A DNA stretch of 64,000 nucleotides from an uncultured Gammaproteobacteria bacterium (lineage in GTDB: Bacteria; Pseudomonadota; Gammaproteobacteria; Coxiellales; Coxiellaceae), in the NCBI GenBank assembly GCA_963711375.1, contig CAVQDV010000002.1:12649-76648 (forward strand), written 5' to 3'. The notes below the pieces were generated by a model. The model was not told the origin of the DNA. It saw nothing but the letters and a program-made list of their open reading frames with translations, and ran no database searches. The translations under genes and the position numbers were made by a program. Below, piece by piece: positions 26,429 to 62,867 of the stretch; the first letter of the stretch is position 1, and each line of letters begins with the position of its first letter.

Positions 26429-27973
26429 TCACTCACCTTGAAGGTATTCTAGCGAATTTTTCATTTCGCTTAAAATTAATTTTGTTAGTGGCTCAAAATT
26501 TTGAGATTCGTCTGCTATGCCAAGAGCCGCCATATATTTTGAGCGATTTTTCATATTAATGACCGTCCAATGGTAACCACCGGAAACCAATAAAAAATTC
26601 ATTAAAAAACGTGCCATTCGTCCATTTCCATCCATATAAGGATGAATAAACACAAAAATATAATGCATTAACACAGCGGCTACGCCCAAGTGACTTTCCT
26701 TCTGCACACATTCAAAAAGTGCATACATGCAGTCACCAACAGCATTATAGTGGGGTGGCGCATGACGCGAATTTCTGATGAAAACTTGATTATTGCGATA
26801 ACCAAATAAATGCTTTTTTTCAATGATGCCGGCATGCGCGCAGGGTGCAAATAAACTGGTATACCAATCTTGATGATCACTCTCAATAACCTCACCTGCC
26901 AGTTCACCAGCAAACACTCGATTAAGGCTTATTTTAACGGCATTAAACGCTTCATAGTAACCTCGTGCCGCCAATGCATTTTTTATGTTCTGATCATCTT
27001 GATTACCTTCTGGGTTCCAGTGATTATTCTTGACCTTAAGAATTAATTCTGGAGTTACTCGATAGCCCTCAATGGATAATGAATTATAAGCATCATGCTC
27101 ATAAATAAGATCAATTTCATGCAAATATTTTCGGGGAGATTCAGTAATGCCTGGAGGATTTGGCATGAATGTTTCTACTTGATTTCGCGCACTTTGCCAT
27201 AATGCTTTAATGCGATTCGCATAGGGTGAGCGATCTCGGTTTTTTCCCAGTAGCGGTTCTTCGGTTTGGAAAGGATTAACATGATTGAGCTTCATTCCTG
27301 CCATAGTCAGTTCGTTATGGAGTGCTTTTGCCATAGTTTGATCACCAATAAATTCATACGCACCGATTAATCGATTTGCTGCAGTGATCAAATTATTTTT
27401 AATGAGGAACTTTGCCATCGAGTCAGTATTACGCACCATTCGCAGTGCAATTTCGACTTCTTGTGGCTGGCTTTGAAAGTATTTGGGTGTCATCCGACAT
27501 AAGGCCTGTGGTAAAGAGAATACTTGCAAACCTTTAAGGACTTCTTTTTGCTCGGGGATATTTTTAGGATCAGCATAGATTAATAATGAAGTATTATAGA
27601 GTAAAGAAATGGGCTCCCCGCCACCATGTGGTGCAATCACGATAATCTGCCGCGGGATGAGGGGTTTATCAACGTGCAGTTCTAATGAATTTTCGGCCGA
27701 CAAGCAGTATTGATCTTGATAACGACTTTGCAGGTAAATACGGGCAAAATCCCAGAAATTGGTATACCAGGAAGTGGAGTCGCCGGTCGCTACGTCTGGG
27801 CGAACGATCATGTACCAGCCTTTAATTATTTCTTGCAACCAACCAGTGCGTTGCAGCAATTCACGATCCTTTCGATCAATATCGGCGCTTACTACGATGT
27901 CTGCGCCATTTTTGTCGGCAACTTTACGTACTCTGGCTAACGCAGCCCCGATATTTTCATGGATTGATGGCAT
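26429..27973 (-). CDS. Fic-domain protein (AMPylase family) with an internal inhibitory-helix motif
   Basis: Fic motif HPYMDGNGRMARFLMN. The upstream SLSIEG fits (S/T)xxxE(G/N). Confidence 0.85.
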   Translation of the reverse strand: MPSIHENIGAALARVRKVADKNGADIVVSADIDRKDRELLQRTGWLQEIIKGWYMIVRPDVATGDSTSWYTNFWDFARIYLQSRYQDQYCLSAENSLELHVDKPLIPRQIIVIAPHGGGEPISLLYNTSLLIYADPKNIPEQKEVLKGLQVFSLPQALCRMTPKYFQSQPQEVEIALRMVRNTDSMAKFLIKNNLITAANRLIGAYEFIGDQTMAKALHNELTMAGMKLNHVNPFQTEEPLLGKNRDRSPYANRIKALWQSARNQVETFMPNPPGITESPRKYLHEIDLIYEHDAYNSLSIEGYRVTPELILKVKNNHWNPEGNQDDQNIKNALAARGYYEAFNAVKISLNRVFAGELAGEVIESDHQDWYTSLFAPCAHAGIIEKKHLFGYRNNQVFIRNSRHAPPHYNAVGDCMYALFECVQKESHLGVAAVLMHYIFVFIHPYMDGNGRMARFLMNFLLVSGGYHWTVINMKNRSKYMAALGIADESQNFEPLTKLILSEMKNSLEYLQGE

Positions 27974-39671: not shown

Positions 39672-42528
<2,857 letters not shown>

Positions 42529-45020: not shown

Positions 45021-45285
45021 CGCTTATTCTGAAAACCTATTCGCTTGGTAAAAACCATTTCTTTATTTTTCTCGATGGAAAATATTTCAAATATCATATT
45101 TTTATCGGGATTGTCTTGGAAGCAGACTTTTTTTGCAACTGGGCATGGCGCTTTTGGAAATCATCCTGAAATTGCTACCTACGATTGGCGTAAAATTTGC
45201 TGGAAGGACTGGAATACTGCAAAAATTAATGGTAATTTGTGACTACTCTGTAAGTAATATGCACAACAATATAAGGATTCAAATC

Positions 45286-46146
45286 ATGTTAAATCCTAGA
45301 GCCATTCGTTCGATTATGTTTACCCCCGCTTTACGACTGGATCGTTTTCACCAGATTTTTGGATCTTTTTCTGATTTATGTCTATTGGATTGTGAAGACT
45401 CTGTAAGTGTGGTTGATAAAGAAGAGGCCAGAAAAAATCTTTATGTATATTTAGAACAATCAAAAGTAGTCAATAAACCCATGGGAGTGCGAGTTAATGG
45501 GCTGAATACGGCTGATGGTAAGGCCGATATATTGGCTCTAAAAAATTGCAGAAACCTACCAGACTATATTGTTATTCCTAAAGTTGAGACCGGACGAGAT
45601 ATTATTTCTGTTGTGGATGAGTTGGATTGTCGTGCAAGAGGTACTCAAATTATCGCGTTAATAGAAAATATTAAAGGGGTACAAAATGTGGAAAAAATTG
45701 CAGCCGCTTCTCCTGATTTAGCGGCACTCATGTTTGGTGCTGCTGATTACACTCGAAGTATTGAAGGAGAGATTTGCTGGGACACGCTTCTGTTTCCTAG
45801 AACGATGATTATTCATGCCGCTTGCAACAATAATATTGGTGCGATCGACACGCCGTATTTTGATATGCAAGACCTCGACGGTCTCAGAAATGATTGTAAG
45901 CGTGTCAAGAACTTGGGATTTACAGGACGTTGTGTAATACATCCCTCTCAAGTTTCCGTTATTAATGAAATGTTTTCATATTCATCCTTGGATCTTGAAC
46001 AAGCAAAACGTATCGTAACGGCTGCGCGCTTAAATAAAGGCAATATTTGTCGCGTTGATGGAAAAATGGTAGGCACTGCTATTATTCAAAAAGCGTTTGA
46101 TGTTTTGAAAAGTCATGAATTGGCTGAGCTCAATCACAATAATTAA
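45286..46146 (+). CDS. CitE/HpcH-family CoA-ester lyase (citryl/malyl-CoA lyase-like), copy 1
   Basis: RSIMFTPA..., LLDCEDSV, IPKVETG, ALIENIKG, FGAADY and GRCVIHPSQV fit the CitE pattern. ATG at 45286 with an AAGGA RBS. Confidence 0.7.
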   Translation: MLNPRAIRSIMFTPALRLDRFHQIFGSFSDLCLLDCEDSVSVVDKEEARKNLYVYLEQSKVVNKPMGVRVNGLNTADGKADILALKNCRNLPDYIVIPKVETGRDIISVVDELDCRARGTQIIALIENIKGVQNVEKIAAASPDLAALMFGAADYTRSIEGEICWDTLLFPRTMIIHAACNNNIGAIDTPYFDMQDLDGLRNDCKRVKNLGFTGRCVIHPSQVSVINEMFSYSSLDLEQAKRIVTAARLNKGNICRVDGKMVGTAIIQKAFDVLKSHELAELNHNN

Positions 46147-46156
46147 GGACGATGAT

Positions 46157-47164
46157 ATGGGACAAATCACACAATCAATCATATACCAATCGCCTGGAGA
46201 AAACGGACAATTGCGTTCAATTCAGCATGAACTAGGCGATCTTCAAGATTCAGAGTTAATGATAAAAGTTTCTGCTGCTGGACTTAATAGAGCAGATCTT
46301 TTACAGAGACAGGGAATTTATAAAGTCCCTGCTGGAGAAACCGAAGTACCTGGAGTTGAGATTGTTGGTGTAGTGGTGGCAAGAGGCCTAGCCGCTAAAA
46401 ATATAAATCTGGGTAGTCGAGTCTGCGGTGTAGTCAGTGGCGGCGGATTTTCAGAATATTGCGCATTAGATAGTAGAATGGCGATCAATGTTCCTAAAAT
46501 ATGGTCTGATATTGAGGGTGCCGCTTTTCCAGAAGCCGCATTAACTGCGAATCAGGCATTAATTCATTTAGGAGAAGTAAAGTCTGGAGACCAAGTGGTG
46601 ATTCATGCTGCTTCAAGTGGCGTGGGAACGATGCTGGTAACGATGGGAAAAGCGCTCGGTGCGAAGATTATTTGTACAACAACGTCTCAAAACAAAGTAC
46701 AGCCACTCTATGACATAGGCGCAGATATTGTGATAGCTGGGAAAGGAGTGGATTTTGCCGAATCTGTTTTAGAAATAACAGAAGGGAGAGGTGCTGATGT
46801 TGTGATAGATTTTTTAGCAGGCCATTATTTTAATAACAATGTACTGGCGCTTAAGGCCGGTGGTAGATTGGTTATGGCGGGTATTCTTGATGATCATCAA
46901 AGTCACGTAAATTGGATTCCTCTAATTAATAAACGAATCAGTGTTCATCCCCTTTCTCTCAGGATGAAACCCTTATCTGAAAAACGATTGGTGACCTCTA
47001 ATTTTTTAAATCGATGGTGGGATGGCTGTGCTTATGGAAGACTTCGTCCGATTATTCACGCTCAGTTTTCTGTATCTGATTTAGATGTTGCTCTGAAACA
47101 AATGTTAAAAAATCAACACGTAGGTAAAATAGTGATTACTATGCAAAAAGAATGTAATTTCTAA
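46157..47164 (+). CDS. Quinone-oxidoreductase-like MDR (zinc-independent alcohol dehydrogenase superfamily)
   Basis: AAGLNRADLLQRQGIY, PGVEIVG, IHAASSGVGT. ATG at 46157 with an AAGGA RBS. Confidence 0.75.
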   Translation: MGQITQSIIYQSPGENGQLRSIQHELGDLQDSELMIKVSAAGLNRADLLQRQGIYKVPAGETEVPGVEIVGVVVARGLAAKNINLGSRVCGVVSGGGFSEYCALDSRMAINVPKIWSDIEGAAFPEAALTANQALIHLGEVKSGDQVVIHAASSGVGTMLVTMGKALGAKIICTTTSQNKVQPLYDIGADIVIAGKGVDFAESVLEITEGRGADVVIDFLAGHYFNNNVLALKAGGRLVMAGILDDHQSHVNWIPLINKRISVHPLSLRMKPLSEKRLVTSNFLNRWWDGCAYGRLRPIIHAQFSVSDLDVALKQMLKNQHVGKIVITMQKECNF

Positions 47165-47195
47165 ATATGAATTTTTAAAAGATAGGCCGTGTTTC

Positions 47196-48209
47196 ATGCA
47201 TCAATACAAACAATTTTTACTGGATAAATTACTTCTAAAAAGTAATAGCGCGATCAATATTATTCCCGTTTGTGACCATTATGCTGGCACTGAGCGCTCA
47301 ATACAAAAATCATTATTATTTCAGAATAAATTCGGGTCAGCTCTAGATCTTACTCTCGATTTTGAAGATGGGAGTGCTATGGGTGATGAAGAATATCAGC
47401 GTACGTTGATAAATGACACTTTAAACAACCAACATAATATTCATGGGCGAGTTGGCGTCCGTATTCATAGTGTAGAAACACTTCATTGGCAGCTAGATGT
47501 GGACGCCGTAATAACTAAAAAAGGAAATTTACCAGCCTTTATTAATATACCCAAGGTACAAAGAATTGAAGAAATTAAAAAGGTCGATTTTTATATTAAG
47601 CAAAGATTATCAACTCATGGTCGAAAGTCAAATATCCCGATTCATATCATGTTGGAGGATGCACCGGCTATCTCTCGAGCTCATGATTTAGTAAATTGTG
47701 GCATGGTGGAATGCTGCAGTTTTGGTTTGTTAGATTTTGTGAGTTCCTTCGGAGGAGCAATTCCTGCCAGTGCCATGCACAGCCCAGCTCAATTTGAACA
47801 TCCACTGGTAAGGGAAGCCAAAATTAAACTTGCTTTTGCTTGTCATGCAGCTGGTGTGATACCCTCTCATTCGATAACAGTCGATATCGGGGATCCAGAG
47901 CAGGCCTATCAGGATGCGCGCCGAGCTCGAGAAGAATTCGGGTATTTGAGAATGTGGAGTATTCACCCCTCTCAAATTGAGCCAATTATTAGTGCTTTTC
48001 AATATAGCCAAGAGGAACTTGAAGAAGCGATAGTAATTTTGGAGCAGGCTTTAAAAATAAATCTAGCGCCGATTCTGTTTAAAGGAAAAATGCATGATAG
48101 AGCATCATATCGTTTCTTTTGGATAAAAATTCGAAGAGCTTTATTAAATGAAGATGCATTTTCAAAGGAACTAGAACGGTTATTAGAAAAATTATTAATA
48201 TTAAATTAA
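47196..48209 (+). CDS. CitE/HpcH-family lyase-like protein, divergent copy 2
   Basis: LTLDFEDGSA, NIPKVQ, IMLEDAPA, LLDFVSS, MWSIHPSQIEPI. Confidence 0.55.
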   Translation: MHQYKQFLLDKLLLKSNSAINIIPVCDHYAGTERSIQKSLLFQNKFGSALDLTLDFEDGSAMGDEEYQRTLINDTLNNQHNIHGRVGVRIHSVETLHWQLDVDAVITKKGNLPAFINIPKVQRIEEIKKVDFYIKQRLSTHGRKSNIPIHIMLEDAPAISRAHDLVNCGMVECCSFGLLDFVSSFGGAIPASAMHSPAQFEHPLVREAKIKLAFACHAAGVIPSHSITVDIGDPEQAYQDARRAREEFGYLRMWSIHPSQIEPIISAFQYSQEELEEAIVILEQALKINLAPILFKGKMHDRASYRFFWIKIRRALLNEDAFSKELERLLEKLLILN

Positions 48210-48231
48210 TTATTGAAACACCGAATATGAA

Positions 48232-49851
48232 ATGAGTCAGATTATGAAAATGGAAAATATGACCTATATAACTACCCCAATTTATTATGTAAATGATGAT
48301 CCCCATATTGGACATATATATACTACAATCAGTGCAGATGTGTTAGCTCGGTTTTTTCGATTAATTGGCCAGACTACTTATCTATTAACGGGTACAGATG
48401 AACATGCTCTAAAAGTGGTTGAGGCCGCTAAAGCAAATGGTATGACGCCAACGGATTGGGCCCAAAGTAAGGCACTTGTTTTTGCAGAGGCGTTTAATCA
48501 GTATGGTATTCAATACACCGATTTTATCAGAACGAGTGACGAAAGGCATATTCAACAAGTTCAAAAAAGAGTGAAAGATTTTTTGGATTCCGGAGATATT
48601 TATTTTGGTAATTATGAGGGTTGGTATGATAAAGGCCAAGAAGAATATATCTCTGACCAGCGGGCAGAAGCTAATCATTATTTGTCGCCGATCAATAAAA
48701 AACCTTTGGTCCGACGCCAAGAATCATGCTTATATTTTAGGTTGTCAAAATATTCTGAGGATGTGAAAAATCTTATTTTAAATGACACTTTGAAAATTAG
48801 ACCAGTGTCACGCCGCCAGGAAATCTTAGCCAGGATTCGGGATGGTATTAATGACATTCCGTGTTCTAGACCTCGTGTTGAAAATTGGGGCGTTGCTGTT
48901 CCAGGCTACGAAGATCAAACGGTTTATGTTTGGATTGATGCCCTCCTTAATTATCTCACGGCAGTAGATTCAGATCTTAACAGAGAGTTTTGGCCACCAA
49001 AAATTCAAATTATAGGAAAAGACATTCTTTGGTTTCATGCACTTATTTGGCCAGCTATGTTGTTGGCTTTGCAAAAAATTCCCCATAAAAAAAATGAATG
49101 GATTGAGTTGCCTGAAATTATCAGAGCTCATGGATTTTGGATATGTGATGGGGAAAAAATGTCTAAAAGTCTTGGTAATTTTATTTCTCTATCCGTTTTA
49201 AACACTTATTCTGAAATCTATGGCCGAGATTCAATAAGATTTTTTCTGATGTTTGCAGGTCCAAATGAGGGCAGTGATGCTGATTTTAGCGAAGAACGAT
49301 TACATGAAACATATACTTCTTTACTGGCAAATACCCTTGGAAATTCTTGTTCACGCGTACTTGCCATGATTTCAAAATATTGCGAAGCCAAAATCCCGAA
49401 TGCTTTGGTGAAAAGTGATTTTCCTGTTGAGCAGGTCATGGAAGCGGTAAAAAGCGCTTGTACTTCCGCAACAGAAGGTGAGTTTCCGACATTAATAACG
49501 GAGGCTTTAAAAATTGTTAGATTAACGGATGCATTTATTCAAAACCGTCAACCCTTTCAGTTGATCAAAGATCCTTCTAAAGTTCTTGAAGTTCAAGCTA
49601 TTTTGCATGATTGTCTCGAAGCTCTTCGCTTAGCTTCAGTGCTTTTGTGGCCAATAATGCCTGAGCGTATGCAGAATTTTTGGAATGCTATTTCGTTTGA
49701 TAAAAAAATGGAAAGTTTAATGAATGGTGGCTTAGTGGAGTCTAAGGATATTTTGCAATGGGGACAGTTAGCGGTTGGGACTTCAGTAGCTAAATTAAAT
49801 GCCCTATTTCCTCGTATCGAATTGCCCAACGTGCTTAATGTTCAACGATAA
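48232..49851 (+). CDS. metG: Methionyl-tRNA synthetase, short knuckle-less form without a C-terminal appended domain
   Basis: TTPIYYVNDDPHIGHIYT (HIGH), GEKMSKSLGNF (KMSKS), anticodon-domain LANTLGNSCSRV. No CxxC pairs in the connective peptide. 539 aa. Confidence 0.85.
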   Translation: MSQIMKMENMTYITTPIYYVNDDPHIGHIYTTISADVLARFFRLIGQTTYLLTGTDEHALKVVEAAKANGMTPTDWAQSKALVFAEAFNQYGIQYTDFIRTSDERHIQQVQKRVKDFLDSGDIYFGNYEGWYDKGQEEYISDQRAEANHYLSPINKKPLVRRQESCLYFRLSKYSEDVKNLILNDTLKIRPVSRRQEILARIRDGINDIPCSRPRVENWGVAVPGYEDQTVYVWIDALLNYLTAVDSDLNREFWPPKIQIIGKDILWFHALIWPAMLLALQKIPHKKNEWIELPEIIRAHGFWICDGEKMSKSLGNFISLSVLNTYSEIYGRDSIRFFLMFAGPNEGSDADFSEERLHETYTSLLANTLGNSCSRVLAMISKYCEAKIPNALVKSDFPVEQVMEAVKSACTSATEGEFPTLITEALKIVRLTDAFIQNRQPFQLIKDPSKVLEVQAILHDCLEALRLASVLLWPIMPERMQNFWNAISFDKKMESLMNGGLVESKDILQWGQLAVGTSVAKLNALFPRIELPNVLNVQR

Positions 49852-49867
49852 TAAACTGGGGTACAGA

Positions 49868-50629
49868 ATGCGATTAAAAGGCAGTAACGTTTTTATAACC
49901 GGCGGTAGCAGCGGAATCGGCTTTGCTCTAGTAAAAGGTTTTCTTGAAGAAGGCGCGAATGTTGCGTTTACCTATCGAAAAGAAGATTCGCTTAAACGAT
50001 CTCATGTACAAGAGCTTTTAAATCAATACCCAGAGGTTTATCCTATACCCTCCGATTTTTCAAATTCTATAGATGCTGAAAACCTTCTCAATAATATGGC
50101 TGAGAAATTTGGGACTCCTATTAATGTGTTAATTAATAATGCCGCTGCATTTTCTCGAGCCACATTCCTTGAGACAACGAGAAACAGTTTAACAGAGATA
50201 CTCAATGTTAATCTCGTTACTCCTTTTGTTCTAATTTCAGCTTTCGCAAAAATGTTAATTGCCTCTAACCAACCGGGTAGTATTATCAATATATCTTCAC
50301 TTAGTGCGACGATGGCGAGAAGCAAAATGGCCGCTTATCAAGCCTCAAAAGCCGGGCTAGAAATGTTATCAACAAGTGCGGCCTATGAACTTGCACCCTA
50401 CAATATTCGTTCAAACATAATTGCCCCAGGTCTAACTGAAACTCCCGCTAATGAAGAGCAAAGAAAAACGAAAGCAGAAATCTGGGCAGAACGATCGGCT
50501 TTAATACCTTTAGGAAGAGCTGGGGTACCGCAGGATTTTATTGGTGCTGCAGTTTACCTTGCTTCTTTGGAAGCTCGTTGGGTTACTGGGGCAAAGATTA
50601 TTATTGACGGTGGGATGAGTTCCTTTTAA
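49868..50629 (+). CDS. Short-chain dehydrogenase/reductase (SDR)
   Basis: ITGGSSGIGFA, NNAA, YQASKAG. Confidence 0.85.
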   Translation: MRLKGSNVFITGGSSGIGFALVKGFLEEGANVAFTYRKEDSLKRSHVQELLNQYPEVYPIPSDFSNSIDAENLLNNMAEKFGTPINVLINNAAAFSRATFLETTRNSLTEILNVNLVTPFVLISAFAKMLIASNQPGSIINISSLSATMARSKMAAYQASKAGLEMLSTSAAYELAPYNIRSNIIAPGLTETPANEEQRKTKAEIWAERSALIPLGRAGVPQDFIGAAVYLASLEARWVTGAKIIIDGGMSSF

Positions 50630-50642
50630 TTCTTCAAAAAAA

Positions 50643-51851
50643 ATGGCGACAAAGTCTATGAATCAATATCAGAACTTGAGCAGAATGATCACATTGAGCG
50701 AAGATTCATGGACTACCGCGAGCGAAAATAATTTGGTTGATTTAGCGGTGCGGCATCTGGAGGCGCCTTTTATGCAAGCTAATGGTCAAAATTTCGTTAA
50801 TATGTGTTCCTGTTCTTATTTGGGGTGGGATCGACATCCTGCAATTCTAGAAGGGGCCATTAATGCCATTCGACAATCTGGGACCTTACATCTTACTACA
50901 GCACGTTGCCGGTTATTTTTGGATTTATTAGGGGAATTTGAGGAGAAATTAAGCGAACATTTTCAGGCAACTGCCGTTGCTTATAATTCTTGCGCGGCAG
51001 CAAGTTCAGCGGCATTGCCGTTACTGGCTTCAGGTGTTTTAACAAAAAACATCAAACCAGTCATGGCTTTTGATAAATTCGCCCATTTTTCGCTTGCTCA
51101 CATGAAGCCACTTTGCGCTGATGAAACACAGATTATCACGATCGACAATAATGATATGCAAACGCTTGAAATGCTTTGTCGGAAACATGCTCAAGTGGCC
51201 TATGTTTCGGATGCAACTTACAGTATTAAAGGATTTTCAAATCTCAAAGAATTAAAATCATTACAAGCGCAATATGGGCTTTTTCTTTATTTGGATGATT
51301 CTCATGGTTTAACAATAAACGGTGAGCTGGGACAGGGAGTTGCAATGGAAATGCTAGGGCCACCGAATGAATTGACATTGATTGTAGCATCTTTGGCAAA
51401 AGCATTTGGTTCTTCGGGCGGGGCACTTTTCTCGGGCAACAAACAGATTAAAAAATTATTGGTTCGATATGGTAATGCCTGGTCTCAATATCTTAATTCA
51501 GCAAGTATTGGCGGTGGAATTTCTTCTTTGGATTTACATAAATCTCAAGAACTTTCTATAGCGCAAAGTTCATGGCGTGACAATTTGGCTTTATTTGACA
51601 GTTGCTTTAACACAGTCAATCGTTGTGAACTGAGTCCTATTCGTGTGATTAACATTAAAACCCCATCAGCGGCTGTTAAAGCAGCCAAGCGCTTAATGGA
51701 TGCCGGTTATTATACTTCTGCCGTATTTTTTCCGGTAGTGCCCAAAAATTCAGCGGGTCTTAGGATTATGCCACGAGCCGATATTAGAAAAGAAACGATG
51801 CAAGAGTTTTGCACTTTAGCACAGGAAATATGTGCAGATGATCTCTTATGA
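50643..51851 (+). CDS. PLP-dependent alpha-oxoamine synthase family enzyme (AONS/SPT/CqsA-LqsA-like)
   Basis: NMCSCSYLGWDRHPAILEGA, LDDSHGLTINGELGQG and SLAKAFGSSGG (Schiff-base Lys context). Confidence 0.75.
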   Translation: MATKSMNQYQNLSRMITLSEDSWTTASENNLVDLAVRHLEAPFMQANGQNFVNMCSCSYLGWDRHPAILEGAINAIRQSGTLHLTTARCRLFLDLLGEFEEKLSEHFQATAVAYNSCAAASSAALPLLASGVLTKNIKPVMAFDKFAHFSLAHMKPLCADETQIITIDNNDMQTLEMLCRKHAQVAYVSDATYSIKGFSNLKELKSLQAQYGLFLYLDDSHGLTINGELGQGVAMEMLGPPNELTLIVASLAKAFGSSGGALFSGNKQIKKLLVRYGNAWSQYLNSASIGGGISSLDLHKSQELSIAQSSWRDNLALFDSCFNTVNRCELSPIRVINIKTPSAAVKAAKRLMDAGYYTSAVFFPVVPKNSAGLRIMPRADIRKETMQEFCTLAQEICADDLL

Positions 51852-52687
51852 AAGAAAAAATTATTTTAGAAAAATTCTCCAACAATCGGCACAAACTTTT
51901 TAATAATATTTTGGAACCATCCTCTCATGCATTGCTACGCCATGTTGAAATGAAAGGAATTCACGTGGTTGATCTGGGCTGTGGAGAAGGGGCATTGACC
52001 TTGTTCATGTGTCAATTAGTTGGGGCAGATGGCCGTGTGACGGCGGTCGATAAAGACGAAGTAAAGTTGAAGCGACTATATGAAAAAGCTAAAAAGTCAG
52101 GAATCAATAACCTTGTGATCTTACATGCTGATGCGACTGTAGCATTACAAAAAATTGATAACGTCGATATGGTTTACTCTCGTTTTTTCTTGATGCATAT
52201 TTCTGATCCTGTCGCGATGCTGTCTCAGATATTCCAGTGTATAAAACGAGATGCTTGTATCGTTTTAGAAGAGCCTGTACTGAGCGCAAGCCTTGATTTT
52301 CCAAAGACAAATTTTTGGGTAAAAGCAATTTTTGCCTATGAAAAACTTTGTGAGCAAACAGGCATAAATCCGAATTATGGTCTTCATCTGATACGAGATC
52401 TGCAATCAGTAGAATTTAAGATACATTTTGCGCAACAAATACAGCCAATCATTAGCGCTGAATTAGCGCAGGAATATAGTAAATATGCCATTTATTCTCA
52501 TCAAAAAGATTACTTAATTTCCGGAGTACTAAACGAAACTGAGTATAATTCTTTACTCAAAACAATTGAACAGCATCCCATCAAGAAAATTGACTATTGT
52601 GGTTTTCATGGAGTAATGCAAGTGGTATGTGGTAAAATTCGTGCGCTTGATGATTTTTTTACACATTCACAACTTCAAGATTTATAA
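51848..52687 (+). CDS. Class I SAM-dependent methyltransferase
   Basis: VVDLGCGEGALTL motif I. 4-nt overlap with the preceding gene. Confidence 0.75.
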   Translation: MKEKIILEKFSNNRHKLFNNILEPSSHALLRHVEMKGIHVVDLGCGEGALTLFMCQLVGADGRVTAVDKDEVKLKRLYEKAKKSGINNLVILHADATVALQKIDNVDMVYSRFFLMHISDPVAMLSQIFQCIKRDACIVLEEPVLSASLDFPKTNFWVKAIFAYEKLCEQTGINPNYGLHLIRDLQSVEFKIHFAQQIQPIISAELAQEYSKYAIYSHQKDYLISGVLNETEYNSLLKTIEQHPIKKIDYCGFHGVMQVVCGKIRALDDFFTHSQLQDL

Positions 52688-52710
52688 AAATAAAATGGGT
52701 AGGGGGAAAA

Positions 52711-54183
52711 TTGAATCGTCAGCCAATACATTCCGATAAAGCAGTGTTGATTATTGGTTCAGGGCCTTGTGGAATAGCGGTTGCAGACACGTTGCGATCC
52801 CAGGGGGTTAGCAGTATTGTCTTTGAAGCGGGTCCACTTCCTATTATTCATGATGGTATAAGTTATCGTAATATGGAAGAGTATCGTCAACAATTAAAAG
52901 CCTACTTATTCGTCAATGACGATGAGTGGAGATATGAAACTAATTCAAAAGATTTTGACTGGATTAGGGTCAGAGCTGCTGGGGGAAGAACACTTCGCTG
53001 GAATGGTTGGCTAGCTCACCCTAGGAAAGAGAATTTTATTTCAGCTGAAAGCCAGGAATGGCAGTGGCCATTTACGGAATTGGAACTTGAAAAACTGTTA
53101 ACACGATCCAAAAAATGGTTGAATGGTCAGGCAAGTTTTTTGGCATCTAGATATGTTAATTTAAAAAATCAACTGGGTTGTGTTGTCTTACCAAAAGCAG
53201 CTGCAATGGCTGAAAATTTAATTCGACCATTTTGTTCGCTGGACCGTTTATCTTGGTCTGCCTATAATTCGCAAACTTCAGCACAAATTCGTCTAGAGGA
53301 TCGTGTTATTGTCACGAGTATTCTGTGTGGTCGTGATGGCGTTGAGGGTGTTGAATATATTGATTGCCGAACGCGAGTAGCGCATCGCATTAAAGCTCGA
53401 GTGGTTATTCTTAGTGCATCTACAATTGAAACTACACGTATTTTATTATGTTCAGAATTAAATCGCAGTGAGGCTTATACCAAAATTGGTAAAGGATATA
53501 CAGATCATATTGCAGCCAGCTATCTGGCTATTTTACCTGATAAATTTAAAGGTGATAAAATCGCCAGCCCCTTAGCGCGTGGTGCTACAATACCCAATCC
53601 ACTTAATTCTCATCGAAGTCTTTTGCAACGGGGAGGGTTTAGCATTGAATTACATGGTCCTAATCCAGCCGAAATATATGAACCAGAGGTACTTGCCGTA
53701 GCAGGTCTTGATGCAGTTAAAGACGCAGATGTTTCTTGCATTAGCGTGAACGCCATTGGTGAGCTCTGTTCTTCGCCGAGACGTTATGTTGGCATTTCTG
53801 ATCAAGTGGATAGCCTTGGTCGTAAAATACCTAAAATTTCTCTTGAATGGGATGAAGAAGTAAAAGCGCTTGTCTTTTCGATGGAAGCTGAAGCCAAACG
53901 GGTAGCAACTGAATTAGCTGGAACGCATGGGCATGCTGTAAAGGTCCGAGAAACGTTAACGCTTGGCGGAACTGGGACCTCTCATGAAGCCAGCACCTGT
54001 CAGATTGGAATCGATGCAAATCATTCTGTCGTCGATCGAGATGGACAGGTTCATGGCATAAAAGGTTTATTTATAGCTGATGCTTCGCTGTTGCCTTCAG
54101 GGTTGGATTGTCACCCAACACTTACCATAGTGAGTTTAGCATTAAATACCGCAGATGGTGTAATTCGCTCCCTAATGATGTAG
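52711..54183 (+). CDS. GMC-family FAD-dependent oxidoreductase
   Basis: VLIIGSGPCGIA FAD fold. C-terminal HEASTCQIG...VVDRDGQVHGIKGLFIADASLLPS. TTG start as in the track. Confidence 0.75.
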   Translation: MNRQPIHSDKAVLIIGSGPCGIAVADTLRSQGVSSIVFEAGPLPIIHDGISYRNMEEYRQQLKAYLFVNDDEWRYETNSKDFDWIRVRAAGGRTLRWNGWLAHPRKENFISAESQEWQWPFTELELEKLLTRSKKWLNGQASFLASRYVNLKNQLGCVVLPKAAAMAENLIRPFCSLDRLSWSAYNSQTSAQIRLEDRVIVTSILCGRDGVEGVEYIDCRTRVAHRIKARVVILSASTIETTRILLCSELNRSEAYTKIGKGYTDHIAASYLAILPDKFKGDKIASPLARGATIPNPLNSHRSLLQRGGFSIELHGPNPAEIYEPEVLAVAGLDAVKDADVSCISVNAIGELCSSPRRYVGISDQVDSLGRKIPKISLEWDEEVKALVFSMEAEAKRVATELAGTHGHAVKVRETLTLGGTGTSHEASTCQIGIDANHSVVDRDGQVHGIKGLFIADASLLPSGLDCHPTLTIVSLALNTADGVIRSLMM

Positions 54184-54217
54184 AGATAAATATTAATTAA
54201 TAAAAGGAAGAATAAAA

Positions 54218-55507
54218 ATGAATATCTATTCGATTCAACAAATCGTAGCCCTAGCAAAATTTACCTCTCCTATTTACAAGGAATTATATGCCGATATTGA
54301 ACCTACCACACCGTTTGATGAGCTTCCAATTCTTACCAATGAACGATTAATGGATATTGTTCATGCTAAGCGTCCTGACTTCGTTTTTGCGGATGGAAAT
54401 ACCCATGGGTTGATTTTTGAATCCTCTGCATCAACCGGTAAGCCCAAAGTGACTCTTTGGGGGAGAGATGAGTGGGAAACTTCAATGCGAATATTGGCTA
54501 CTTATCATTGGCGAAATGGCTTGTTGAAAGACAATGATCGAGTTTCTAATTTGTGTGCCAGTCCCTATCTTTCTTATCGGATTGTGCACAGTGTGATTGA
54601 AAATTATCCTGGCAAATGCTCTGAAATACCTGTGGGTTGTGAAATGGAATTTTCGGAATTAAACGATATCGTTATGAAGTATGAGTCTAATGTTTTAGCG
54701 GGAATAAATTCAACATTTTTGGGTCTTGCAATGGACCTCTTAGATCGGGGAATTCAAAATAAACGGGTCGAGAGAATTCTGGCCGGTGGGGAACTGCTCT
54801 ATGGTAAACAACGCGAAGTAATACAACTGGCCTTCCCAAATGTCACCATGGTTTCTTTTTTATTTGGCACAACGGAAAGTGGTATTATCGGATTCAGTCA
54901 TTTGGATGATCAACTTGATGTTTTTAGACCATTTCCCGGAGTCAGTATCGTGGAGATTATCGATGAAAAAACCAATAAAAAAATTACAACCCCAGGTCAA
55001 GTAGGTAAATGCGTGGTTACTTCATTACTACGGGTAGCCGCTCCGGCTATCCGTATTGATACTGGTGATTATGCTGAGTGGGTGGATAACATGGATAGTA
55101 ATTCACCCTGTTTTAGAGTGCTTGGAAGAAAATTTCCTTTTAATCATAGCATCAATAACGCCCAGTTTAGTGAGACAGACATTTGGGCTTTAATTAAATA
55201 TGTAGAGGATCATATCCCTATTACAAAATTACAGGTTGAACTGCATCACGATTCGATAGAAGTGGTATACGCCTTACTCGATGGGAATAAACATGATCCT
55301 AAAATTGTTGAGGCAGCCATAAACCAAGGAATTTATAATAGGGTGCCTATTTTACATGACTCCGCCATTACACTAAAAATGCGTTTAGAAAATTTCTCTC
55401 ATTTTATTGGAGCTACTCGAAAGAAAGGCCGGCTTATCAAAGATTGCCGCACACCCAGCGGTTCGGCGTTTATCAATGCCGTATCACAGGATGGTGCAAC
55501 TCAATAA
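54218..55507 (+). CDS. Adenylate-forming ligase of the PaaK / coenzyme F390 synthetase-like family
   Basis: ESSASTGKPKVTLW (AMP-binding core), about 430 aa, with the PaaK-like N-terminal ELPILTNERL. Confidence 0.65.
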   Translation: MNIYSIQQIVALAKFTSPIYKELYADIEPTTPFDELPILTNERLMDIVHAKRPDFVFADGNTHGLIFESSASTGKPKVTLWGRDEWETSMRILATYHWRNGLLKDNDRVSNLCASPYLSYRIVHSVIENYPGKCSEIPVGCEMEFSELNDIVMKYESNVLAGINSTFLGLAMDLLDRGIQNKRVERILAGGELLYGKQREVIQLAFPNVTMVSFLFGTTESGIIGFSHLDDQLDVFRPFPGVSIVEIIDEKTNKKITTPGQVGKCVVTSLLRVAAPAIRIDTGDYAEWVDNMDSNSPCFRVLGRKFPFNHSINNAQFSETDIWALIKYVEDHIPITKLQVELHHDSIEVVYALLDGNKHDPKIVEAAINQGIYNRVPILHDSAITLKMRLENFSHFIGATRKKGRLIKDCRTPSGSAFINAVSQDGATQ

Positions 55508-56959
55508 TTGGCTACAACAACTTTTTTTCTCGCGTTTTGGTCTATGGGCCAATAGGGTGAAAGGGTTATTGATCATCGCTAAATCATTTTGAGTGTCTGC
55601 TTGTTCATCAATTTCCTGGGCTTCGATTACATTTTTTGCTGTCAGGTTTTGAATAAAGGCTTGCACATAAGCGGGGGGTAAGGTATTTAACACGATTCGA
55701 TATTTTTCAAATAAGGCTTGTCGAATATAGTCATTTCCATTTAAGCGTAAGGCCATGAAACGGTTTTGAATGTCAATAACATTACCCGTAATGGCAAAAA
55801 ATTTGGAAATGATTGCTCCTGAAATGACCCAACCCAGAATAGCGTGTTGCAGAGTAGGGTCAGAAAAGAGGTCGATCACAACTTTGGATCGGCCTGAAAA
55901 TGCCAATATAGTGAAGGCATAGGCAATGAATAAAAAAACAAGCGTTGTTTTCGGGTGATTAATGAAAGCAGGATTTAGATTATTAATACCATAAAGTTTG
56001 TTGGTAATAAAGGTGTAAATTGTGGAAACCAAGGTAGTCGAAAATAAAAATTCCAGGAAATAGGTTGGTAATGTAGTGATTAATCCAATTAACCCTGAAA
56101 AAAATCTAGGGATCGAAAAATTCTTGATCATACCTTCATAAGTTAAATAGGTGGTAACGACTTCCCAAGATAAAGGCAACAAGAAACCCAATACTTTGCT
56201 ACTGCTATGAAGCCCATAAAAAAAAATTTTAGGGTGGGCCTGTCGAATTCGATAGGTTGGTAAAAATTGCACTCCAGCATTATAAAATTCCATAATAATA
56301 GGTTCAAGATTTTCCAACGTGAGCGGTGTTTCGCTGAAAGCGCTTTTGTGGACCCCATATTCTAAAAAGGCAAGAATAAGATCTCTTTGCTCTCGCAAGT
56401 GTGGAAGTTTTCGGTATCGAATTATATCGTTATATATTTGTCGAAATAAAATATTAAAACTGGCTGAATTCGTAGAGATGTCGAGAAATAGTGAAAATGG
56501 TAACATCCAGGGAGAATTGTATCTTAAAGTAATTAATGCCCCTGGTACAGCGGATCCAACGCCTAATATAATTGAGGATAGAGTAATGACTAATTCTGGG
56601 GCTCGATTTGTTTTTGGATTGCTGCGAATAAGGCCGATATAATCAAAAAAGTTGCGTACTGACCAGACGCTCACAGATCCCAGAGCTACATAGATGCTAA
56701 TTCCATAAGCCACGCCTAAATAAGGGTTTGAGGCAAATTGATACGCTGGAATGATATAAGGAACACCCGCGTTAACCGAAAGCAGATAACAAACACCTTT
56801 CGAGAGATCAACATACCAGGGGCTTTGATGAGGTTTGATTGTTTGATTATAAATAGTTTGCAATTGTCTAAAGACACGTGTGGAAAGTTCGTCAAGTTCG
56901 ACTGTGTTTTGATAACCGCTCTCATTGGTTTGATCGAGATCAATAGATTGATTACGCAT
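55484..56959 (-). CDS. Large polytopic membrane protein, function unknown
   Basis: About 10-12 hydrophobic segments. I prefer the ATG at 56959 (MRNQSIDL). The 3' end overlaps the convergent ligase gene by 24 nt. Confidence 0.5.
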   Translation of the reverse strand: MRNQSIDLDQTNESGYQNTVELDELSTRVFRQLQTIYNQTIKPHQSPWYVDLSKGVCYLLSVNAGVPYIIPAYQFASNPYLGVAYGISIYVALGSVSVWSVRNFFDYIGLIRSNPKTNRAPELVITLSSIILGVGSAVPGALITLRYNSPWMLPFSLFLDISTNSASFNILFRQIYNDIIRYRKLPHLREQRDLILAFLEYGVHKSAFSETPLTLENLEPIIMEFYNAGVQFLPTYRIRQAHPKIFFYGLHSSSKVLGFLLPLSWEVVTTYLTYEGMIKNFSIPRFFSGLIGLITTLPTYFLEFLFSTTLVSTIYTFITNKLYGINNLNPAFINHPKTTLVFLFIAYAFTILAFSGRSKVVIDLFSDPTLQHAILGWVISGAIISKFFAITGNVIDIQNRFMALRLNGNDYIRQALFEKYRIVLNTLPPAYVQAFIQNLTAKNVIEAQEIDEQADTQNDLAMINNPFTLLAHRPKREKKSCCSQLLSCTIL

Positions 56960-57092
56960 GTTCTTCCCTAGATTATGTAAAACGAGAAACTGTAACAAAT
57001 CTTGCGGAATTAATACACTTGTATTTTAAGACGACAAGTCTCTTCTTTTGTATGGGCTGTAGCTGAATTTCGGGGGCAGTGTATTCTCTGAA

Positions 57093-59687: not shown

Positions 59688-59930
59688 ATGTCAAAAGTAT
59701 CCATATCACGTCTAGACATATTAAAAGCGCAAGCAGCCAAATTGGCCGTGCAGATTCAAACCACTGAGGGCTGTCTTAAAACAAGCGAAGGTAAACAAGA
59801 AATGCGTCGTAAAATTTTGATTGGCTCTTACTCACTTGAAGAGACCAGAAAAAATAATATCCTAGTAAAGCGTAAAGCTACAATACTTAAGTTCTTAAAT
59901 TGCGATGGCGAAAAAGCCTTGTATGAATAA
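59688..59930 (+). CDS. Small TraD-like (conjugal-transfer accessory) protein, possibly a remnant
   Basis: A coiled-coil N-terminus followed by RRKILIGSY resembles the RRKILxG motif of small TraD-family proteins. Weak call. Confidence 0.3.
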   Translation: MSKVSISRLDILKAQAAKLAVQIQTTEGCLKTSEGKQEMRRKILIGSYSLEETRKNNILVKRKATILKFLNCDGEKALYE

Positions 59931-61512
59931 TATAATGCCAAATTACGAGGTCATCATTATCGGCGGTGGACCAACCGGGGTAGCATTAGGCATAGAGCTG
60001 GGTCTTCACGATATCAAGACATTAATTCTTGAAAAATATGCTTCTCCTTTAATCTCACCTCGTGCCCAACTAATCAATGCGAGATCAATGGAATTTTTCA
60101 TGCGCTGGAAGTTGGATTCTGTGCTAAAAGAAAAACAAATATCTTCGACGGCTTTTCCGAACCAAGGCGTCTGGTGCTCAAAATTGAACGGTGAAATCTA
60201 CGCCGTTAGCAGATCCAATGATTGCTTGCATGATGCTTTATCACCCCAAAGAAATGTTCGTATTCCCCTTTGGATTACTGAAACCGTACTGAGAAATAAA
60301 TTAAAGGATTTTTCATCAGTAACGTATTTGACGGAACATGAAGCGATGGATATTCATTTCGAAGAAAATCACGTTATTGTCAACGCAAAAAATAATGACA
60401 AGCTACACGTCTGTACATCAAAATTTTTAGTCGGTTGCGATGGGGTTAATAGCCTTGTACGAAAGAGAGCCGAAATTTCTTTCAAAAAGCTAGCGCCAAC
60501 AAAACGCGTGATCAGCATTGTATTTGAGGCTCCTGAAATTGAAAAAGTTATTACCGTGACAAAGGGAAGTCTTTTTTTTCTGATGGATAATGAATTCCCC
60601 AGTGCTATTGGTTCCATCGATCCCAATAAAGGACTTTGGTATGCGCAAATTATTTATACGGGCGATGCTAAGACGATTGAAGAAATCGACCTTGTTCAAC
60701 TGCTTGATGAGATATCCGGAGTTAATTTTCCTAAAAAAATTATTCGAGCCCATTTTTGGGATATGCAAATTCAACTGGCGGAACACTTTGCAAAGGATAA
60801 TCGTATTTTTTTAGTGGGTGATAGCGCACATGGATTTGTTCCGACGGGCGCACTTGGATTAAATACTGGTTTTGGGGACGTGGTAAATTTAGGATGGAAA
60901 TTAGCGGCTGTATTAAAGCATCAAACTCCAAAAAAAGCCCTTGGTACTTACCAAATCGAAAGACTTCCTATTTGTCTCCGTAATTTAGAAATAGCTCAAC
61001 GAAATGCTGACGAATTATCCTCAGTAAGAAAAAAATTCCCATCAAAGCAGGAAGCTGGGAACTTTGCAAAGGCTAATTCAGCGCTGGCAAAGCAATTTTC
61101 GAGATCCATAGGAGCGACAATGGGCTATGCCTATTTTAATTCCTTTTTTATTTGTTTGAATGAGGGCCAGGATACGACATCGATGCCGGATGGTGAGTAT
61201 CATTCAAAAGCAAGTCCCGGGTATTTTTTGCCGCATGTGGCGATTGATGAGCAGCAGTCGATTTATTGCGTCTTATCCCCGACAAACTGGACTTTGCTAG
61301 TTTCAGGAATGGCCGATTCAACCACCATAAACCGATGCAAAGAAAAATTTAGAAGGTATAATATCGAATTGGATATATTGAATTTGAGGGAAAATACGTA
61401 TCCTCCAAAATATCTTTTGATTAGGCCAGATTGGCATATTGCTTATGCCAAGGAAGACTTAAATGAAGATTTTTTTATTTTCATTGAAAACATTTTTGGT
61501 CAAGGGGAATAA
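59905..61512 (+). CDS. FAD-dependent aromatic-ring monooxygenase (PheA/TfdB-like)
   Basis: VIIIGGGPTGVALG, CDGVNSLVR, LVGDSAHGFVPTGALGLNTGFGDVVNLGWKL. The start may be 59923 or 59935. Confidence 0.8.
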   Translation: MAKKPCMNNIMPNYEVIIIGGGPTGVALGIELGLHDIKTLILEKYASPLISPRAQLINARSMEFFMRWKLDSVLKEKQISSTAFPNQGVWCSKLNGEIYAVSRSNDCLHDALSPQRNVRIPLWITETVLRNKLKDFSSVTYLTEHEAMDIHFEENHVIVNAKNNDKLHVCTSKFLVGCDGVNSLVRKRAEISFKKLAPTKRVISIVFEAPEIEKVITVTKGSLFFLMDNEFPSAIGSIDPNKGLWYAQIIYTGDAKTIEEIDLVQLLDEISGVNFPKKIIRAHFWDMQIQLAEHFAKDNRIFLVGDSAHGFVPTGALGLNTGFGDVVNLGWKLAAVLKHQTPKKALGTYQIERLPICLRNLEIAQRNADELSSVRKKFPSKQEAGNFAKANSALAKQFSRSIGATMGYAYFNSFFICLNEGQDTTSMPDGEYHSKASPGYFLPHVAIDEQQSIYCVLSPTNWTLLVSGMADSTTINRCKEKFRRYNIELDILNLRENTYPPKYLLIRPDWHIAYAKEDLNEDFFIFIENIFGQGE

Positions 61513-61865: not shown

Positions 61866-62867
61866 GTGGACAAGAAGATGAGAAAAGAATCGAAAAACCC
61901 CCTGCTGAAAATCCCTGAGACTGTCATAAACTATAGTGAGCTTGTGCCAGGCGATTTTTTACTTGTACGACATGATCCATTAGGAATTTTTAAACATATT
62001 TGTGTAGTGGCTGAGAGCCAATGCGACGGGGTTAATAATCGAATTCATGCGGCTGGTTTATCCAAAGTTACGGGTTTGATTGTTTCACCCATGTTTAGCC
62101 ATGAAGAGCTTAAGAAAGCCAACAGTACTGTAGCGGTTGTTAGAATTCTTGATGAAAAGATTCGCAAAAATTTTCTCGCGATTCTTGTAAATTGGGTTTC
62201 TTGGGCCGTTTCATATGATTTTAAACGCTTCAACAATTTATGTAATAAGCTTAGTGAATTTTATAACACTGAATTTAATCCTGAAACGAAAACTTGCCCT
62301 AATATGAATGAGATGCCTGTTGAAAAAATCAGCCATGCTCTTTCTGAATGCGCTAAACTTTTTCGTATTGAAGACGCTATCAAGTATGCGCAGAGAAGGG
62401 AGGTAAGTCCTATAAGACCTAAAGAAAATCTCAAAGATGAACGAGGTTTTTCTTGTAGTATGTCTATGATCGCTGCGTTGCAAGCAGCCTATGTGATGGA
62501 AAAAGTTACTCCCGTGAACGACAAGTGGTGCTCTAATAGGAATGTATTTTTTAAACCACCACCATTAGAGGAGGCACTCGAAAATCGCAAGGCTTCTTTA
62601 GAAGAATATAAAGATGAAAATGAATATAAAAATGTGCTGATAAATCTTATTCCAGAGGAACTTCGTCTACCGCCCAAGTTTACAGATTGTGATTTATTGA
62701 TGTGGAGTATTTATAAGGGGAATTCCTTAAAAATTCTTGGAAAATTTAGCGCTCCGGACGATCATTTATTCATTCATAAAAATGAAATGGAAGAAGAAAT
62801 CTTAAAGGCTAAGAAAACTGGCCAAGAGAAAAAAGAGGAATTCAGGGGGAAAGTATTTGGAAAATGA
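61866..62867 (+). CDS. Hypothetical protein (Lys/Glu-rich C-terminus)
   Basis: 333-aa ORF with a GTG start. No recognisable motif. Coding-like composition. Confidence 0.4.
   Translation: MDKKMRKESKNPLLKIPETVINYSELVPGDFLLVRHDPLGIFKHICVVAESQCDGVNNRIHAAGLSKVTGLIVSPMFSHEELKKANSTVAVVRILDEKIRKNFLAILVNWVSWAVSYDFKRFNNLCNKLSEFYNTEFNPETKTCPNMNEMPVEKISHALSECAKLFRIEDAIKYAQRREVSPIRPKENLKDERGFSCSMSMIAALQAAYVMEKVTPVNDKWCSNRNVFFKPPPLEEALENRKASLEEYKDENEYKNVLINLIPEELRLPPKFTDCDLLMWSIYKGNSLKILGKFSAPDDHLFIHKNEMEEEILKAKKTGQEKKEEFRGKVFGK

Follow-up and report, generated by a model that had tools for sequence, protein, structure and literature searches.

Why should a plasmid carry, in the middle of what looks like a biosynthetic operon, a second gene for an enzyme as basic as methionyl-tRNA synthetase (MetRS)? 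The question is raised by an open reading frame (ORF) at positions 48232-49851 (+) of a stretch of 64,000 nucleotides from an uncultured gammaproteobacterium of the Coxiellaceae (assembly GCA_963711375.1), which we call the window. The window lies on a plasmid-like contig of 107,185 bases (C2) and opens with a ParA-type gene; the assembly also comprises a 2.92-Mb chromosome and two contigs of about 80 kb. The answer that we lean towards, on balance and without great confidence, is that the window MetRS is a working monomeric enzyme of the MetRS1 type, which was acquired horizontally together with a nine-gene pathway and serves as a resistant-target immunity enzyme.

The ORF (539 codons) has a stop-free translation that scores above the cut-offs of the MetRS models TIGR00398 (386.9 bits, cut-off 336.35) and Pfam PF09334 (273.9 bits, cut-off 20.1), and its residues 7-507 align to the solved MetRS of Aquifex aeolicus (E 1.2e-97) and Thermus thermophilus (8e-96). 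It fits the MetRS1 model PRK12267 (461.8 bits) better than the MetRS2, or E. coli-type, model PRK00133 (263.3 bits), and its best PDB matches are the enzymes of A. aeolicus, T. thermophilus, Brucella and S. aureus, with E. coli-type chains reaching only E 1e-26. The full-length equivalog cut-off of PRK12267 (598) is missed, as expected from the absence of a C-terminal domain.

A preliminary description of this DNA had reported intact catalytic motifs and a helical anticodon-binding domain in a protein with neither CxxC pairs nor a C-terminal domain, and in all these points we agree with it. PHIGH occupies residues 24-28 (the HIGH motif itself, H25-I-G-H28, lies at 48304-48315, +) and KMSKS residues 309-313 (49156-49170, +), both read from the translation and alignments and both invariant in 13 of 13 clade members. 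The anticodon-binding helices (49342-49557, +) can be aligned with solved MetRS to residue 484-507, while Pfam anticodon-domain models give no match at E 0.001. Within these helices N371 and R375 are kept in all 124 MetRS1 rows examined, and F442 stands at a column that holds Trp in A. aeolicus and T. thermophilus. In the stretch of the connective peptide that is equivalent to the zinc knuckles (residues 133-159, 48628-48708, +; placed by alignment to 2csx and 3vu8 and by a column table), the zinc-ligand columns of the A. aeolicus and T. thermophilus enzymes are filled by D133, Q136, S152 and N155/L159, leaving zero knuckle cysteines. The MetRS core closes with the LFPRI motif and the protein ends just beyond it, and a domain scan found no PF01588 tRNA-binding domain in the protein; the single PF01588 match of the whole genome is in an 822-aa ORF elsewhere, which we take to be pheT.

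An AlphaFold model built with 13 close homologues (mean pLDDT 85.1, pTM 0.86) places a helical bundle at residues 354-497 (block pLDDT 87-98) and superposes on MetRS1 structures with TM values of 0.80-0.86, anticodon domain included. The length of 539 aa given earlier is correct for the ORF and probably not for the protein: the nearest homologues begin at the methionine at position 10 (MTYITTP...), and residues 1-8 have a pLDDT below 50, so that the real start is probably 48259, giving 530 aa. The intact motifs and the invariant anticodon-helix residues predict a catalytically competent enzyme. The host genome has three tRNA genes with a CAU anticodon, all of them chromosomal.

This enzyme is an additional one. 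The chromosome (contig C5) carries a metG of the MetRS2 type (729 bits with PRK00133, cut-off 587), whose 554-aa product has CxxC knuckles, covers positions 5-540 of the 676 of the profile without a C-terminal domain, and is 22% identical to the plasmid MetRS; the earlier suggestion of a second MetRS is thereby confirmed. The extra copy is also foreign. At E 1e-60 it was found in none of 24 genomes of the same family and 16 of the same class (0/40), and in an even sample of the class a MetRS1 occurs in 3 of the 399 other genomes scored (one further genome could not be scored), with 38-39% identity. Its nearest relatives (74-52% identity) come from metagenomes and metagenome-assembled genomes (MAGs). 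Named relatives are a Janthinobacterium lividum MAG (60%) and a Paraburkholderia sp. (member of a 53% cluster), followed by Lysobacter/Xanthomonadaceae MAGs at about 50% and several Pseudomonas at 46-47%. In a MetRS tree these copies from Proteobacteria group into a single clade of 28 rows (SH-aLRT 95), or of 33 with a Lysobacter-type group (99), which nests among non-proteobacterial MetRS1. This tree used 63 of 125 rows (P0001-P0030, 26 later hits, three translated loci, the host metG and two class loci); it was rooted with the host metG and comes from a quick search with SH-aLRT support only, and should be read with care.

The horizontal acquisition that had been surmised, with a phylogeny against the host metG as the proposed check, is therefore supported by the scarcity of the gene in relatives and by its position in the tree. 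That it might be the sole, vertically inherited metG was considered and rejected, given the chromosomal gene, the absence in relatives and the tree. A MetRS2-type gene is kept in all three genomes with this MetRS1 clade that we checked (the window host and two Pseudomonas, G525 and G424), in its long form in the two Pseudomonas. At third codon positions the MetRS gene has a GC fraction of 0.296, within the cluster range of 0.285-0.333 and next to means of 0.344 for the plasmid and 0.367 for the chromosome, so that the cluster looks like one compositional unit that has long been resident in an AT-rich genome. A plasmid collection gave no DNA match and only protein matches below 37% identity, a metagenome scan with the close homologue P0003 gave only relatives of 35-43% identity and did not find the contig of P0003 itself, and a first scan of genome contigs for the neighbourhoods of the closest metagenomic homologues gave no match.

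The MetRS gene stands fourth in a run of nine co-directional genes that extends from 45133 to 55507 (all +). The first encodes a CitE/RipC-like CoA-ester lyase of the HpcH_HpaI family (45133-46146, with the true start probably later in the ORF), recognised by family models and by a 50% identical homologue in a Pseudomonas cluster. It is followed by an MDR/quinone-oxidoreductase reductase of the PIG3 family (46115-47164; family models and Pseudomonas homologue) and, directly upstream of the MetRS gene, by a second, divergent CitE-like lyase, CitE2 (47196-48209; family models and homologues). Downstream come an SDR reductase (49868-50629, with the longest ORF starting at 49799; family models and homologues), and a pyridoxal-phosphate (PLP)-dependent alpha-oxoamine synthase, or amino acid C-acyltransferase, of the PRK07505 subfamily (50643-51851; 450 bits, cut-off 342). 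The last three genes encode an S-adenosylmethionine-dependent methyltransferase (51848-52687; family model), whose gene overlaps that of the synthase by 4 nt, a GMC-family FAD oxidoreductase (52711-54183; family models), and a PaaK/DdaG-like adenylating ligase of the phenylacetate-CoA-ligase family (54218-55507; family models and homologues).

A gap of 22 nt separates the preceding stop codon from the MetRS ORF, and one of 16 nt separates the MetRS stop from the SDR ATG at 49868, which has GGGG ahead of it. There is no excess over shuffled sequence of promoter-like (30 versus 37.6) or terminator-like (7 versus 9.4) matches, and the location of the gene in the middle of a biosynthetic-type operon, as first described, holds. 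A convergent gene for a 504-aa membrane protein without a family match (55484-56998, -) has no homologue at the Pseudomonas cluster or at a further cluster in genome G115, and its membership is doubtful. For the oxoamine synthase we also considered an autoinducer synthase of the LqsA/CqsA kind, and rejected it: NF005526 gives 71 bits with a cut-off of 428, and PRK07505 passes. Family scans of the nine genes found no dehydratase, ATP-grasp ligase or amidinotransferase, and the only MaoC/mesaconyl-CoA-hydratase-type gene of the host genome lies elsewhere on the plasmid. There, upstream of the window (G000:C2:7369-10686), a CitE-like gene that is 33% identical to the first lyase of the cluster adjoins a two-domain MaoC/mesaconyl-CoA-hydratase-like gene; the pair may represent a CoA pathway of the itaconate or mesaconate type, or may provide the dehydratase that the cluster lacks.

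The MetRS gene is conserved along with this cluster. In a sample of 301 Pseudomonas genomes, G525 is the only one besides the chosen centre of the sample that has this MetRS, and the only one with a close synthase (59%). Its 16-kb contig C378 carries homologues of all nine cluster genes in an order that differs from that of the window: the MetRS gene (46%) is divergently adjacent to SDR-QOR-ligase-CitE2-MaoC-CitE1-synthase-methyltransferase-GMC, after which follow a hexapeptide transferase and an AMP-binding enzyme. A linkage test, in which the exact sizes and sources of the longest contigs were compared between homologues of MetRS, CitE2 and the synthase, gave four coincidences. They fall at sizes of 16138 (jgi; MetRS 71%, CitE2 61% and synthase 73% identical), 12978 (lgn; MetRS 52%, synthase 64%), 22614 (jgi, lgn and ena; MetRS 53%, synthase 61%) and 181535 (P. 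citronellolis; MetRS 46%, synthase 59%). In a synthase tree, all six MetRS1-linked synthases fall in one clade of 20 rows (SH-aLRT 99), and the synthase and MetRS clades split alike, into a Pseudomonas group and a group that on the MetRS side comprises the window, metagenome, Janthinobacterium and Paraburkholderia copies. The synthase tree comes from a quick search with SH-aLRT support only, under LG+G4 without a mixture model, and carries a long-branch warning in a distant clade. The MetRS1 also occurs as an orphan, in P. alabamensis (G424) and in a Lysobacteraceae MAG (G425), both of which are without the synthase and the ligase. In P. alabamensis the orphan gene follows directly on an operon for an ABC peptide transporter of the Opp/Dpp type (L037, 5681-11551).

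Related oxoamine-synthase clusters have acquired extra synthetases of their own. The only other genome of the class sample with a close synthase (54%), G115, has the order MetRS-SDR-synthase-CitE on a 28-kb contig, and here the cluster MetRS is a MetRS2-type paralogue that is 51% identical to the housekeeping MetRS of G115. Among themselves, the housekeeping MetRS2 of G115, the window host and Pseudomonas share 54-58% identity. This paralogue departs from the three housekeeping MetRS2, the only ones compared (the L130 row, a wrong-strand ORF, was left out), at four motif positions, by HLGH, DAHG, FH-LFWPAML and KMSKS. The G115 cluster (L128, G115:C65, 1171-9692) is preceded by genes for a glyoxalase/dioxygenase-fold protein, an FMN-dependent hydroxyacid dehydrogenase, a Glu/Leu/Phe/Val-type dehydrogenase and a mesaconyl-CoA-hydratase-like protein; MaoC/mesaconyl-CoA-hydratase genes thus occur in the clusters of both G525 and G115.

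A more distant synthase clade (41-46% identity) is found in 53 of the 301 Pseudomonas genomes. One syntenic cluster type of this clade has the order synthase-CitE-OCD-hydroxyacid dehydrogenase-aldolase II-aminotransferase-MFS, and in three of the five examples read it ends in a second leucyl-tRNA synthetase (LeuRS). The second LeuRS is present in G687 (L120, C32), G662 (L152, C1) and G480 (L151, C49), and not in G713 and G661. A match to the editing domain of a second LeuRS was found in 4 of 54 synthase-positive genomes, in three of them near the synthase, and in 1 of 19 synthase-negative controls, where it was weak. Extra synthetases have therefore been recruited repeatedly, and the kind of synthetase (MetRS1, MetRS2 or LeuRS) tracks the synthase clade.

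How can these observations be explained? Synthetase duplicates that serve as resistant targets are familiar from antibiotic producers, among them the IleRS2 MupM for mupirocin and the ThrRS copies that accompany the genes for borrelidin and obafluorin; we know of no demonstrated case of a resistant-target MetRS. The LeuRS AgnB2 provides immunity in the agrocin 84 cluster, and a MetRS immunity gene has been predicted in actinobacterial agrocin-84-like clusters (Travin et al., PMC8323819, in the parts available to us). As in the AgnB2-type systems described there, the window has a divergent second copy of an essential synthetase that is encoded among biosynthetic genes and inherited with them, and it shares with the actinobacterial clusters an additional in-cluster MetRS, proposed in that source as immunity to a MetRS-targeting product. 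The window differs from systems of the AgnB2 and MupM type in a pathway that is not nucleotide-, polyketide- or NRPS-based, and in that resistance is here only proposed. The actinobacterial clusters belong to another phylum and have nucleotide scaffolds with AgnC1 homologues, their MetRS being set beside that of the window by its description in the same source.

The chemistry of the window cluster resembles that of another group of products. Ketomemicin biosynthesis makes ketomethylene pseudopeptides, to which the arphamenines are related: an aldolase/lyase, a dehydratase and a dehydrogenase prepare a substituted acyl-CoA, a PLP-dependent C-acyltransferase adds an amino acid, and a ligase extends the product (PMC11943689 and PMC9239090, as far as their accessible text goes). 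At the level of families, the CitE-type lyases, reductases, stand-alone C-acyltransferase and ligase of the window recall the ktmA-F and arphamenine sets. The window differs from ketomemicin in a PaaK-like instead of an ATP-grasp ligase and in having neither amidinotransferase nor dehydratase, and its SDR, methyltransferase and GMC oxidase are additions. Among the six ktm genes that PMC11943689 names there is no synthetase. Because the comparison was made by family and not with the Ktm sequences, we speak only of a pathway that would work like the ketomemicin one, and not of membership.

As to activity, chemistry, target and resistance, we infer the following scheme. If the pathway runs as for ketomemicin and arphamenine, a substituted succinyl-type acyl-CoA would be made by the CitE-like lyases together with the reductases, and the oxoamine synthase would condense it with an amino acid, probably methionine, to an alpha-amino ketone, that is, a ketomethylene pseudopeptide. 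The SDR, the methyltransferase, the GMC oxidase and the PaaK-like ligase might then tailor this ketone. The product would keep the free amine and the side chain of methionine and would resist turnover, and it, or an intermediate, could block the MetRS2-type housekeeping enzyme of the host, while the co-expressed MetRS1 would keep tRNA-Met charged.

We favour immunity as the function because it accounts at once for an extra copy of the other type, for its inheritance with the cluster, for the synthetases of related pathways, and for the orphan copies, including that of P. alabamensis beside an Opp-type importer. What is found here is also what is looked for in a resistant target: an extra copy of an essential gene, lying in the cluster and conserved with it, and with a phylogeny at odds with the host lineage. 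Immunity agrees, moreover, with the AgnB2 and actinobacterial precedents (PMC8323819) and with the type-selective inhibition of MetRS1 and MetRS2 reported in PMC7916415, whose available text describes the two MetRS of Streptococcus pneumoniae and the selectivity of inhibitors between the types. There a MetRS of the other type, gained horizontally, alters the response to inhibitors without stopping translation; in S. pneumoniae, however, MetRS2 protects against synthetic MetRS1 inhibitors, whereas in the window the roles would be reversed, with a MetRS1 in a MetRS2 host, and the gene belongs to an operon for biosynthesis.

Several observations weigh against an immunity function. The known ketomethylene pseudopeptides are described as inhibitors of proteases and aminopeptidases, and not of synthetases (PMC11943689, in the portion available), and the window cluster has no dehydratase gene. 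The linkage of MetRS and synthase through the four shared contig sizes is indirect, and two G525 genes, those for the ligase and the GMC enzyme, are each broken over two frames (L119, 6229-7403 and 12388-13918), which may reflect decay or an error of the draft assembly. The active-site motifs of the window clade are near-identical to those of apparent housekeeping MetRS1 relatives, so that any resistance would have to lie in the MetRS1 type as such; the use of a same-type MetRS2 paralogue by the G115 cluster is awkward if this is the case. Finally, most synthase clusters of the distant clade are without a second LeuRS.

More broadly, it is possible, and we offer it as a tentative idea, that there is an unrecognised proteobacterial family of ketomemicin-like oxoamine-synthase clusters whose products, ketomethylene or hydroxyethylene compounds derived from amino acids, each inhibit a cognate synthetase and which each carry the matching immunity enzyme, be it MetRS1, a MetRS2 paralogue or LeuRS; the recurrence of the three kinds in related clusters suggests such a general rule.

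The main rival to an immunity function is that of a dedicated supplier, in which the cluster MetRS would make Met-tRNA or Met-AMP as the activated methionine donor for a pathway enzyme, much as the seryl-tRNA synthetase VlmL does in valanimycin biosynthesis. The position of the gene inside the operon and its conservation with the pathway suit a supplier equally, the tracking of the synthase clade by synthetase type is what would be seen if the building block were delivered on tRNA, and the invariant anticodon-helix residues suggest that tRNA binding has been kept. Yet tRNA-Met is already charged by the host, oxoamine synthases use free amino acids and acyl-CoA, and the other eight cluster proteins are all assigned to families outside those known to use aminoacyl-tRNA. 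Furthermore, MetRS1 survives as an orphan where the synthase and the ligase are absent, which suits an immunity gene better than a pathway enzyme. We consider a supplier role unlikely; were it nonetheless true, it would be a new tRNA-dependent step in pseudopeptide biosynthesis.

A still less probable account is that of a passenger or back-up gene, an extra MetRS of general benefit (dosage, a stress isoform, or a chromid-style relocation) that was inserted into the operon by chance. The same plasmid does carry two methionine-aminopeptidase (MetAP)-like genes, panE and a thi operon, and the MetRS1 of P. alabamensis stands in an unrelated setting. A chance passenger is hard to square, however, with the linkage of the same nine genes in Pseudomonas despite their other order and with the congruence of the MetRS and synthase trees. 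Extra synthetases have been recruited independently in related clusters, and among at least 80 MetRS1 loci from other genomes, of at most 50% identity, none of those listed has the cluster neighbours, although closer relatives may lie outside the listing.

A tRNA-independent MetRS-like enzyme of the hydrazine-synthetase kind (PyrN/Spb40-type), activating an amino acid and passing it to a small-molecule acceptor, is very improbable and for practical purposes excluded: although MetRS-like domains have such roles in clusters (bioRxiv 10.1101/2025.08.22.671884, in the text available), PyrN-C (9L8V, 9VQ4) matches residues 20-106 only, at E of about 6e-9 against 1e-97 for true MetRS, PyrN has KFSTG in place of the intact KMSKS of the window enzyme, family scans of the cluster proteins show no cupin or N-hydroxylase, and a genuine KFSTS example in G115 looks quite different. 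The latter, at G115:C201 (L135, 592-2214, -), is MetRS-like and 541 aa long, has zinc-knuckle cysteines and carries KFSTS for KMSKS, and resembles the hydrazine-synthetase type.

How unusual is the enzyme itself? The preliminary description called it atypical, with stress on the missing knuckles and C-terminal domain, and this was overstated: both absences belong to the subfamily and do not mark a special adaptation. In a column alignment of the 120 best database hits and four translated loci, the first three knuckle columns read D-Q/E-S and residue 442 is F or Y in every MetRS1 row (124), and the rows carry labels that include Planctomycetota, Phycisphaerae, Acidobacteriota, Gemmatimonadetes and Deltaproteobacteria. 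The loss of the zinc ligands and the F/Y at 442 are, by this alignment, lineage traits of a large MetRS1 subfamily, since they are common to all 120 best hits, and we have accordingly dropped the idea that zinc loss and the change from Trp to Phe at 442 are adaptations of the cluster copy. Some rows of the subfamily are 655-688 aa long and have PF01588 (Planctomycetota, Acidobacteriota and others), and the same enzyme type occurs at the at least 80 loci in species-representative genomes mentioned above; it would thus seem an ordinary enzyme in several phyla. The yardstick of about 680 aa for a housekeeping MetRS fails for this host, with its 554-aa metG product; in Pseudomonas the housekeeping MetRS ORFs measure 698-712 aa.

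A search for an active-site signature specific to the window clade, from which five Lysobacter-type rows, P0112 and the host metG were left out, gave three strict changes only (L51, R113 and L462), and looser ones at positions 23, 308 and 314, beside HIGH and KMSKS. Solved short MetRS1 enzymes from Mycobacterium smegmatis (2x1l), M. tuberculosis (5xet/6ax8) and Brucella (4dlp), which are presumably zinc-free, belong to the same fold and length class as the window MetRS (Foldseek TM 0.81-0.84, query-normalised). They are 30-31% identical to it, and each is a sole housekeeping MetRS, in contrast to the window copy, which is a second one.

The window MetRS would thus be a cluster-embedded target duplicate, a kind of gene already known, in an oxoamine-synthase setting for which we found no published description: searches of main texts, with supplements outside their reach, returned no account of an oxoamine-synthase cluster with a gene for MetRS or LeuRS. 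Literature searches and the available text of two reviews of synthetase inhibitors likewise gave no natural-product inhibitor of MetRS, and under the tentative idea of a cluster family with cognate inhibitors, the product of the window cluster would be the first. Its targets, in this effector-rich, plasmid-borne setting, could then be the MetRS2-type enzymes of a eukaryotic host or of competing organisms. Drug development aimed at MetRS is active, with selectivity between MetRS1 and MetRS2 as its central problem, and a cluster MetRS names a likely target ahead of the molecule. A target duplicate conserved with a compact operon outside the NRPS and PKS classes, in Pseudomonas, Burkholderiales-type MAGs and the window plasmid, is a concrete lead for target-directed genome mining.

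Some other genes of the plasmid deserve mention. The two MetAP-like genes (Peptidase_M24) lie at 6420-7202 (+) and 11949-12785 (-) of the window; if the tentative idea above is right, they too might be immunity copies connected with methionine. On the chromosome there is a single MetAP-like gene, with 33% and 44% identity to the plasmid pair, besides a longer M24 protein; no MetAP gene was seen near the related clusters in the other genomes read. The thiC ORF (39743-41350, +) stops at position 393 of the 420 of the ThiC radical-SAM profile. The window further encodes an IS110-family transposase (4443-5543, -), a 629-aa protein with two arylamine N-acetyltransferase matches (15264-17153, +) and a Fic-domain protein (26429-27973, -). 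A 333-aa protein without a family (61866-62867, +) has a 79% identical copy on contig C3, and an FAD monooxygenase (59905-61512, +) has a chromosomal paralogue of 49% identity.

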